DNA of 64,000 nucleotides from Escherichia coli (GCF_003334785.1 NZ_QOWV01000004.1); one strand, 5' to 3'. Counted from the stretch's first letter, positions 15,723 to 17,612 are shown. The notes: generated by a model not told the origin, from the sequence alone. Made by a program: numbers and translations.

Positions 15723-17612
15723 TTACGCATCACCACCGAAACGACGACGACCGGTAGAATCATCACGACGCGGAGCGCGGCCTTCACGACGTTCGCCGCT
15801 AAAACGACGACCATCACCACGGCCACCTTCACGGCGTTCACCGCTGAAGTTACGACCGCCTTCACGACGTTCGCCACCGAAACCACGACCACCGCCACGA
15901 CGCTCACCGCCAGTATGCGGCTGTGCATCGCCCAGTAACTGCATGTTCATCGGCTTGTTGAGAATGCGAGTGCGCGTAAAGTGTTGCAGCACTTCACCCG
16001 GCATACCTTTCGGCAGTTCGATGGTGGAGTGAGAAGCAAACAGCTTGATGTTACCAATGTAACGGCTGCTGATGTCGCCTTCGTTAGCAATCGCACCAAC
16101 GATATGACGAACTTCAACACCATCATCGCGGCCCACTTCAATGCGGTACAGCTGCATATCGCCAACATCACGACGTTCACGACGCGGACGATCTTCACGG
16201 TCACCACGCGGGCCACGGTCGTTACGATCGCGCGGACCACGGTCATCACGGTCACGGAATTCACGTTTCGGACGCATCGGCGCATCTGGCGGTACGATCA
16301 GAGTACGTTCACCCTGTGCCATTTTCAGCAGTGCCGCAGCCAGAGTTTCGAGATCCAGCTCTTCACCTTCAGCAGTCGGCTGAATTTTGCTCAGCAGTGC
16401 GCGGTATTGATCCAGATCGCTGCTTTCCAGCTGCTGCTGTACTTTAGCGGCGAATTTTTCCAGACGGCGTTTGCCTAGCAGTTCTGCGTTCGGCAGTTCT
16501 ACTTCCGGAATAGTCAGCTTCATAGTACGTTCAATGTTGCGCAGCAGACGACGCTCGCGGTTCTCAACGAACAGCAGCGCGCGGCCAGCACGACCCGCAC
16601 GACCGGTACGACCGATACGGTGAACGTAAGACTCAGAATCCATCGGGATATCGTAGTTAACTACCAGGCTGATACGCTCAACGTCCAGGCCACGGGCTGC
16701 AACGTCGGTCGCAATCAGGATGTCCAGACGACCATCTTTCAGGCGTTCCAGTGTCTGTTCACGCAGCGCCTGGTTCATGTCACCGTTCAGCGCGGCGCTG
16801 TTGTAGCCGTTACGCTCAAGAGCTTCAGCCACTTCCAGAGTCGCGTTTTTGGTACGAACGAAGATAATCGCCGCATCAAAATCTTCCGCTTCCAGGAAAC
16901 GTACCAGTGCTTCGTTTTTGCGCATACCCCAGACAGTCCAGTAGCTCTGGCTGATGTCAGGACGGGTAGTCACGCTGGACTGAATGCGCACTTCCTGCGG
17001 CTCTTTCATAAAGCGGCGGGTAATGCGACGAATCGCTTCCGGCATGGTTGCAGAGAACAGAGCGGTCTGATGACCTTCCGGGATCTGCGCCATAATGGTT
17101 TCAACGTCTTCGATGAAGCCCATGCGCAGCATTTCGTCAGCTTCATCCAGAACCAGACCGCTCAGTTTAGAGAGGTCCAGAGTGCCACGTTTCAGGTGGT
17201 CCAGCAGACGGCCCGGAGTACCGACAACGATCTGCGGCCCCTGACGCAGGGCGCGTAATTGCACGTCATAACGCTGGCCGCCGTACAGAGCAACCACATT
17301 TACGCCGCGCATGTGTTTAGAGAAATCCGTCATTGCTTCAGCAACCTGTACCGCCAGTTCGCGGGTCGGTGCCAGCACCAGAATCTGTGGTGCTTTCAGC
17401 TCAGGATCAAGATTCTGCAACAGAGGTAAAGAGAATGCTGCAGTTTTTCCGCTCCCCGTCTGGGCCATACCCAGAACGTCGCGGCCATTCAGCAGATGTG
17501 GAATACACTCTGCCTGAATTGGAGATGGTTTTTCGTAACCCAGATCGTTAAGGGCTTCAAGGATAGGAGCCTTCAGGCCCAGATCTGCAAAAGTGGTTTC
17601 GAATTCAGCCAT
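15723..17612 (-). CDS. deaD: cold-shock DEAD-box ATP-dependent RNA helicase, 629 aa
   Basis: ATG at 17612 ([16 protein letters not shown]); Q-motif, GSGKT, DEAD and SAT motifs; Arg/Gly-rich repetitive C-terminus; ORF-track start at 17678 is an in-frame extension. Confidence 0.95.

Follow-up and report, generated by a model that had tools for sequence, protein, structure and literature searches.

The repeat-encoded, disordered C-terminal tail of the DEAD-box helicase DeaD/CsdA in Escherichia coli: length alleles and a probable role in RNA tethering

In the Escherichia coli window analysed here, a stretch of 64,000 nt, the deaD (csdA) gene ends in 62 codons which are built of degenerate tandem repeats and which, of the deaD segments tested, are the chief hotspot for indels. 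We consider it probable that the encoded tail is a disordered, net-positive, mixed-charge extension of the dimeric helicase DeaD/CsdA that was born by slippage and serves as a non-specific RNA tether and multivalent module. Basic tails are a well-known theme among DEAD-box proteins, and the DeaD tail itself is already known and ordinary, being a catalogued disordered region of a well-studied bacterial helicase. The additions made here are small and quantitative: a catalogue of length alleles and a quantification of the hotspot.

The deaD gene and the composition of its tail

Judged by its sequence, the feature is an orthologue of DeaD/CsdA. It sits in an open reading frame at 15723..17678 (minus strand), in which the start is the ATG of MAEFETT at 17612, giving a protein of 629 aa. 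The NCBIfam DeaD equivalog PRK11634/NF008642 is matched with 1397.5 bits against a cutoff of 989, protein positions 1-629 corresponding to profile positions 1-628 of 628. The 3' part of the gene is 100% identical to K-12 MG1655 (501 nt compared), and the matching locus is annotated as deaD in 5,426 of 5,426 complete E. coli genomes. Pfam places the domains in the order DEAD (30-196), Helicase_C (232-340), DeaD_dimer (374-443), DbpA (489-558) and DeaD_C (568-629). This is the architecture of the Hera/CsdA/CshA-type dimeric helicases, with RecA1, RecA2, a dimerisation domain, an RRM-type RNA-binding domain (RBD) and a C-terminal tail; the dimerisation of helicases of this type is known from the literature (PMC11850223). 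The upstream neighbour of deaD is nlpI. The features of the gene and its downstream side are as follows.

15723..17612, minus strand: deaD/csdA coding sequence, 629 aa plus stop codon, cold-shock DEAD-box RNA helicase (open reading frame, translation, Pfam, NCBIfam)
16173..16277, minus strand: Arg/Asp-rich disordered linker, aa 446-480 (repeat search, pLDDT about 49-55)
15921..16172, minus strand: DbpA-type RBD, aa 481-564, directly upstream of the tail (5B88, Pfam DbpA, pLDDT >90)
15726..15911, minus strand: tail coding region, aa 568-629, the last 62 codons (composition, Pfam DeaD_C, AlphaFold)
15656..15680, minus strand: intrinsic terminator-like hairpin with T-run, 43 nt past the deaD stop codon
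14325-15569, minus strand: mtr, downstream of deaD

An earlier sequence-only reading had described an Arg/Gly/Glu-rich C-terminal tail of about 80 codons. The tail is indeed present, and the peptide quoted for it is exactly aa 568-617, but the length was slightly generous: the low-complexity part comprises the last 62 codons (15726-15911), and 15912-15960 encode the final residues within the 5B88 structure of the RBD (to aa 564), followed by a PHT junction. Over the 62 residues, Gly accounts for 32%, Arg for 31%, Glu for 11% and Asp for 6%, these four together making up 79%. Charged residues amount to 48%, with a net charge of +0.13 per residue. Codon use is equally uniform, as nearly all Arg codons are CGT and nearly all Gly codons GGT or GGC.

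The Pfam family PF12343 (DeaD_C, "C-terminal disordered region"), which lies within PRK11634, is the same thing as this tail. It is matched over its whole 62-position model, directly in line after DbpA at 489-558 (E=9.2e-12, 45.6 bits, aa 568-629 on model positions 1-62 of 62). The family description records the disorder; the repeat architecture and the strain length alleles are absent from it. AlphaFold2, run with a 47-sequence alignment, assigns a pLDDT of 39-47 to aa 563-629, with DSSP coil throughout and no secondary structure, compared with >90 in the folded domains of DeaD. The AlphaFold pLDDT is below 50 over aa 563-613 and 615-629. Among the solved DeaD structures, 5GJU (residues 6-210), 5GI4 (218-445) and 5B88 (481-564), none covers the tail, coverage ending at aa 564. 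The tail is thus predicted, by modelling and not by measurement, to be an intrinsically disordered region.

With regard to sequence motifs, Thandapani et al. are said to have divided RGG/RG proteins in 2013 into di- and tri-RGG classes (at least two RGG, 0-4 residues apart) and, failing these, tri- and di-RG classes. The motif count over the 62 residues of the tail gave one RGG, three RG and one di-RG (RGGGRG), and no di-RGG, tri-RGG or tri-RG. We therefore rejected the tail as a classical RGG box; it is RG-like by composition only. The eukaryotic RGG/RG domains, as in LAF-1/DDX3-type helicases, are likewise Arg/Gly-rich, repetitive and disordered, are carried by RNA helicases and are linked to RNA binding and condensates (LAF-1 is cited as reference 76 in PMC12758526). 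The E. coli tail resembles these domains without being a member: acidic-basic ERRE blocks interrupt it, and it has just one RGG and one di-RG. Tails of this kind are not known to be arginine-methylated in E. coli.

Repeat units and length alleles in E. coli

The tail consists of four irregular repeat units of 11, 12, 15 and 13 aa (33, 36, 45 and 39 nt) and a terminal segment.

15879..15911, minus strand: repeat unit 1, 11 aa, with 8-nt TGGCGGTG repeats at a spacing of 15 nt, between which the +15 and +30 nt duplications are flanked
15843..15878, minus strand: repeat unit 2, 12 aa, site of the +12 nt (REGG) duplication
15798..15842, minus strand: repeat unit 3, 15 aa, longer through a GDGRR insertion
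15759..15797, minus strand: repeat unit 4, 13 aa, degenerate
15726..15758, minus strand: terminal segment, 11 aa

The repeat is real, degenerate and irregular, and as a tandem DNA repeat it stands above chance. That imperfect direct repeats encode the tail had been proposed from the sequence and was borne out by different methods. Tandem Repeats Finder reports a period of 33 with 2.9 copies, 71% matches and a score of 108 at 15816-15911, and the repeat search found a 42-nt unit in three copies with spacings of 45 and 33 and identities of 74-86%. An exact 18-nt repeat, GGCGAACGTCGTGAAGGC, is present in two copies 78 nt apart, at 15858-15875 in unit 2 and at 15780-15797 in unit 4. Compared with composition-preserving shuffles, the longest exact peptide repeat of 8 aa has p=0.004 and a 6-mer that is present three times has p=0.003; for the longest DNA repeat, codon shuffles gave p=0.015. 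Fixed-offset periodicity is weak for both protein and DNA (corrected p about 0.06-0.12), since the repeat units differ in length. For this reason we relied on the statistics of k-mers and longest repeats, on Tandem Repeats Finder and on the repeat search.

Indels were surveyed with 205-nt query segments of deaD in 5,426 complete E. coli genomes. The tail query (15726-15930) returned 163 genomes at 90-95% identity, 6 with less than 80% coverage and at least 40 with the two-piece matches of a tandem duplication. In-frame indels of the tail are present in at least 209 of the 5,426 genomes (about 3.9%), and about 96% keep 629 aa. In the RBD control segment of equal length (15931-16135), 0 of 5,426 genomes fell below 95% identity and 0 had low coverage. 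The linker query (16136-16340) showed an indel signature in about 8 of 5,426 genomes. The linker, which has a 24-nt repeat of its own, is thus a second and rarer indel site, with insertions such as +24 nt (EDRPRRER duplicated) and +18 nt (GPRGDR duplicated).

Representatives were fetched and aligned, which gave five tail alleles, all of them in frame.

+12 nt: REGG duplicated, 633 aa, about 161 near-identical genomes (about 3%), including strains 042 and PCN033
+15 nt: GGERR duplicated, 634 aa, at least 39 genomes (a lower bound, counted through two-piece matches to the K-12 query), many with ST361-type strain names
+30 nt: GGERR three times, 639 aa, one food isolate
-78 nt: precise deletion between the GGCGAACGTCGTGAAGGC copies of 18 nt, 26 aa lost, 603 aa, laboratory-derived isolate EC0026B_R4
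-132 nt: 44 of 62 tail residues lost, 585 aa, one urine (clinical) isolate

For the +15 nt duplication an allele-specific count is unusable, because wild-type genomes tile the tandem-duplicated query as two overlapping pieces of 100% identity. Large deletions of the tail are found in at most 6 of 5,426 genomes, of which the two that were aligned are the -78 and -132 nt alleles. The terminal segment is kept in all E. coli length alleles seen and is similar across the Enterobacterales (...RRRFG(G)DA).

The wild-type sequence holds direct repeats at the spacing of the indels: GTCGT at 12 nt, TGGCGGTG at 15 nt, GGCGAACGTCGTGAAGGC at 78 nt and GCGTCGTG at 132 nt. As the repeat spacing equals the indel length for each allele, the alleles bear the signature of slippage or unequal recombination, and slippage between recognisable direct repeats can account for every one of them. 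The expectation that the tail is prone to length polymorphism, for which a comparison among strains had been suggested as the decisive check, therefore proved right. Tail length is not invariant, with five in-frame alleles and an indel in at least 209 of 5,426 genomes against 0 in the folded control, and the polymorphism is modest and linked to lineages. The alleles are the outcome of occasional slippage, and the locus is not hypervariable, since the alleles are few and lineage-linked. We also considered a contingency or phase-variation locus and rejected it; the five alleles are in frame and follow lineages.

There is only a slim chance that the lineage-specific tail-length alleles are a functional tuning rather than neutral markers. 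If this were the case, the gain or loss of GGERR/REGG valence units would shift the RNA tethering or the condensation threshold of DeaD, and this would in turn act on growth in the cold or on the passage into dormancy, since DeaD condensates are reported to be linked to persistence. With its members of -44, -26, +4, +5 and +10 aa, the series of natural alleles is ready material on tail valence in relation to RNA tethering and DeaD condensates.

Tails in relatives and the probable function

Within the Enterobacterales, a unit of the GERREGG type is common, with 1-4 regex-counted copies and tails of 51-90 aa past the LLGD anchor, in a set made up mostly of C-terminal fragments with RBD and tail and with taxa taken from few source names (Klebsiella, Serratia, Yersinia, Hafnia, Proteus and others). 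A Klebsiella-labelled entry has one extra 11-aa unit and a duplicated APRRDD, and the Serratia- and Yersinia-labelled entries carry more diverged versions of the tail. A wider sample comprised 150 diverse DeaD-like representatives, of which 133 have a detectable RBD after exclusion of the E. coli-like fragment P0007. The tails of these 133 relatives have a median length of 50 aa, the extremes being 0 and 298 aa. In 103 of them the tail has at least 25 aa and is net positive in every case (103/103; median +0.20 per residue, 30% Arg plus Lys, 8% hydrophobic residues), and 29 of the 133 are essentially tailless. Unrelated significant repeats of their own, such as arrays of GGGGGYRGRDD, are carried by 16 of the 103 tails, and in P0001, a relative with 72% identity, the tail is an unrelated one rich in Lys, Ser and Arg. 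Repeat expansion in DeaD-like tails has thus occurred many times independently. On these data, positive charge and disorder are conserved across the family and the sequence is not.

The tail would have arisen, and would still be changing, as short direct repeats give rise to in-frame duplications and deletions between them, either through replication slippage or through unequal recombination. An origin of this kind would account for the four degenerate units, for the differences in copy number among the Enterobacterales and for the rare length alleles in E. coli. As to the function, we infer that the tail adds a sequence-non-specific electrostatic contact to RNA beside the RBD. This contact may tether the helicase to large structured RNAs (50S precursors, cold-stabilised mRNAs) and may favour strand annealing, and multivalent Arg-RNA and Arg-Glu/Asp contacts of the tail may feed the foci or condensates of DeaD. 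Selection would then act on charge, disorder and approximate length of the tail, and not on its exact sequence.

A role of the tail in RNA binding or condensates, as the sequence-only reading had suggested, is plausible by analogy, on the basis of homologues and of data on full-length DeaD. The C-terminal domain of CsdA is locally very basic and was proposed as the seat of ATP-independent annealing (PMC3590231), and C-terminal extensions of E. coli DEAD-box proteins were proposed as secondary RNA-binding sites (PMC1616957). The full-length protein is described as forming foci in E. coli cells and, in vitro, droplets that depend on salt (PMC7414142, citing Hondele 2019; PMC12758526). Our literature search found no experiment that isolates DeaD residues 568-629 and no tail-deletion data on DeaD phase separation.

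The closest comparison by domain order is Hera of Thermus thermophilus, which shares with DeaD the core, the dimerisation domain, the RRM-type RBD and a basic flexible tail (PMC11850223). Hera binds single-stranded RNA through the core of its RBD and makes contact with double-stranded RNA through the tail that comes after this domain (PMC3695512). The E. coli tail is likened to it by this order of domains, and is itself 62 aa long, repetitive and of mixed charge (11% Glu, 6% Asp). Disordered positive tails on a DEAD-box core are likewise found in RhlB, in Pseudomonas RhlE1 and RhlE2, in yeast Mss116p and in CYT-19 of Neurospora (PMC3814787, PMC11260450). Non-specific RNA binding is a property of the basic C-terminal extensions in RhlB, Mss116p and CYT-19 (PMC3814787), and in RhlE the disordered regions enhance the binding and unwinding of RNA as well as phase separation (PMC11260450). 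The DeaD tail may by analogy work like these other basic helicase tails. However, it is not homologous to them in sequence, and it stands after a folded RBD, whereas theirs follow directly after RecA2.

With respect to catalysis, PMC11850223 describes the RBD as the main RNA anchor of CsdA and, in summarising Xu 2017, reports ATPase and unwinding activity for a construct that has core, dimerisation domain and RBD but lacks the tail. Catalysis therefore does not depend on the tail. Turner et al. are said to have found in 2007 that CsdA with large truncations at its C-terminus still allows growth when the temperature is moderately low, but no longer does so when it is lower. As a separate observation, an essential role of the tail is spoken against by the active tailless construct, by the natural allele lacking 44 aa and by the tailless relatives.

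In the deaD frame, the six differences between the tails of K-12 and O157 are five synonymous and one nonsynonymous, which places this frame of the tail under purifying selection. This ratio, together with the net-positive, hydrophobic-poor composition of all 103 tails of at least 25 aa, which neutral drift would not maintain, argues against the view that slippage-prone DNA gave rise to an essentially neutral tail of low complexity, tolerated without a specific role. We regard this view as unlikely. It can draw on a tail sequence that is unconserved beyond the Enterobacterales, on the tailless 29 of 133 relatives, on the natural alleles lacking 26 and 44 aa and on the enzymatic activity of the tailless construct (PMC11850223, in its summary of Xu 2017). 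Yet about 96% of the E. coli genomes stay at exactly 629 aa despite the slippage-prone repeats, and large deletions are limited to at most 6 of 5,426 genomes.

Protein binding is also on record for some tails of the RhlB/RhlE type: RraA binds directly to the unstructured C-terminal extension of RhlB (PMC3814787), and the disordered region of Pseudomonas RhlE2 mediates the interaction with RNase E (PMC11260450). Likewise, the DeaD tail might mainly dock a protein partner and not primarily RNA, be it the RNase E scaffold of the cold-shock degradosome, an RraA-like regulator or ribosomal proteins, and the terminal ...RRRFGGDA, kept in the E. coli alleles and similar across the Enterobacterales, is in this respect like a short linear motif. 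We nevertheless judge a docking function to be improbable, since the literature search gave no partner of DeaD residues 568-629 and since the family conserves composition and not sequence, which is a better fit to electrostatic nucleic-acid binding. The favoured reading is that of an RNA tether and multivalent module. As a point in its own right against this functional model, it should be noted that the tail sequence is unconserved even in the 72%-identical P0001 and that the tail is not a classical RGG box.

Alternative reading frames across the tail

Two long open reading frames in alternative frames had been pointed out in the region of the tail, and both are present in the ORF listing.

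15700..16032, plus strand: antisense open reading frame, 110 aa, Pro/Arg/Ser-rich
15713..15928, minus strand: sense-strand +1-frame open reading frame, 71 aa, Val-rich

Across the tail, 0 stop codons occur in the sense +1 frame and in two antisense frames, because the sense codons are CGT, GGT, GGC and GAA. The differences between K-12 and O157 were also read in these frames. In the sense +1 frame they are one synonymous and five nonsynonymous, and 15713-15928 was rejected as a gene and taken as a compositional by-product. In the antisense frame of 15700-16032 the ratio is also 5:1 (synonymous to nonsynonymous), which is uninformative because the wobble positions coincide with those of deaD; the antisense frame was rejected as a gene on its composition alone. 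Both open reading frames are treated here as compositional by-products, unsupported as genes.

We give almost no credence to the idea that the repeat is a contingency or phase-variation locus, or conceals a second gene in an alternative frame (15700-16032 on the plus strand, 15713-15928 on the minus strand): long open alternative frames do exist and many database entries have frameshifted Val-rich tails, but 5 of 5 alleles examined are multiples of 3 that keep the deaD frame, the alleles are lineage-linked and not scattered, the open frames follow from the CGT/GGT/GAA codons, the sense +1 frame has its differences at 1:5, and sequencing error is the simplest account of many frameshifted entries.

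These entries (P0156, P0157, P0186, P0193, P0215 and others) have V-rich tails that correspond to the sense +1 frame, and many of them, coming from short metagenome or run-assembly contigs, are most simply explained by errors of this kind. As the +1 frame is free of stops, sequencing frameshifts in the tail give plausible-looking Val-rich proteins, which pollute the databases.

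The linker and the repeats flanking the RNA-binding domain

Besides its tail, DeaD contains a second repeat region, located in the linker that joins the dimerisation domain to the DbpA-type RNA-binding domain (RBD). It is built from the units RDRDDRGP, RDRNDRGP and RGDREDRP and is predicted to be disordered.

16173-16277, - strand: Arg/Asp-rich linker (aa 446-480), from the dimerisation domain to the RBD
15763-15774 and 16177-16188: exact 12-nt repeat flanking the RBD, copies 414 nt apart

Length alleles of the linker are rare and in-frame, being found in about 8 of the 5,426 E. 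coli genomes, and are represented by the deaD loci L008 and L009. In APEC E18005, a duplication of EDRPRRER (+24 nt) results in a DeaD protein of 637 aa, and in NCCP 13914 a duplication of GPRGDR (+18 nt) results in one of 635 aa.

Similar Arg-codon repeats are present on both flanks of the RBD, including the exact 12-nt repeat. In two short database fragments (P0189 and P0263) the tail is joined back to where the RBD begins, with GGERR directly followed by [13 protein letters not shown]. Such a junction would fit either a duplication of the RBD or an assembly artefact via the flanking Arg-codon repeats.

The tail deletion allele and deaD copy number

The -78 nt tail allele was detected at locus L005 (NZ_OX460316.1, EC0026B_R4), in an isolate described as laboratory-derived from a parental strain. 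The accession of the corresponding protein, WP_005001325.1, is a low number, which hints that the allele may be present in other genomes too. Concerning copy number, every search of the 5,426 E. coli genomes revealed one genome with an extra copy of 3′ deaD segments on a plasmid; all remaining genomes carry one chromosomal copy of the searched part of deaD.

Valine-rich C-termini in database entries

Many database entries of DeaD show a C-terminus that becomes Val-rich mid-way (...[22 protein letters not shown]...MRNHR), among them P0156, P0157, P0186, P0193, P0196, P0197, P0204, P0207 and P0215. These ends correspond to the +1 frame of the tail, which is free of stop codons (15713-15928, - strand). 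Short metagenome or run-assembly contigs are the source of many of the entries, for which sequencing frameshifts are probable. A few are found in multi-megabase NCBI assemblies, and these could be real.

Extent of the deaD reading frame and the region 3′ of the gene

The mechanically determined ORF is 22 codons longer at its 5′ end (17612-17678, - strand), reaching a TTG at 17678 and encoding 651 aa. The annotated 629-aa DeaD and the NCBIfam profile both start with the ATG at 17612 (MAEFETT).

15656-15680: terminator-like hairpin of deaD, followed by a T-run

Additionally, a weak sigma-70-like match (15715-15687, - strand) overlaps the end of deaD and lies upstream of mtr.
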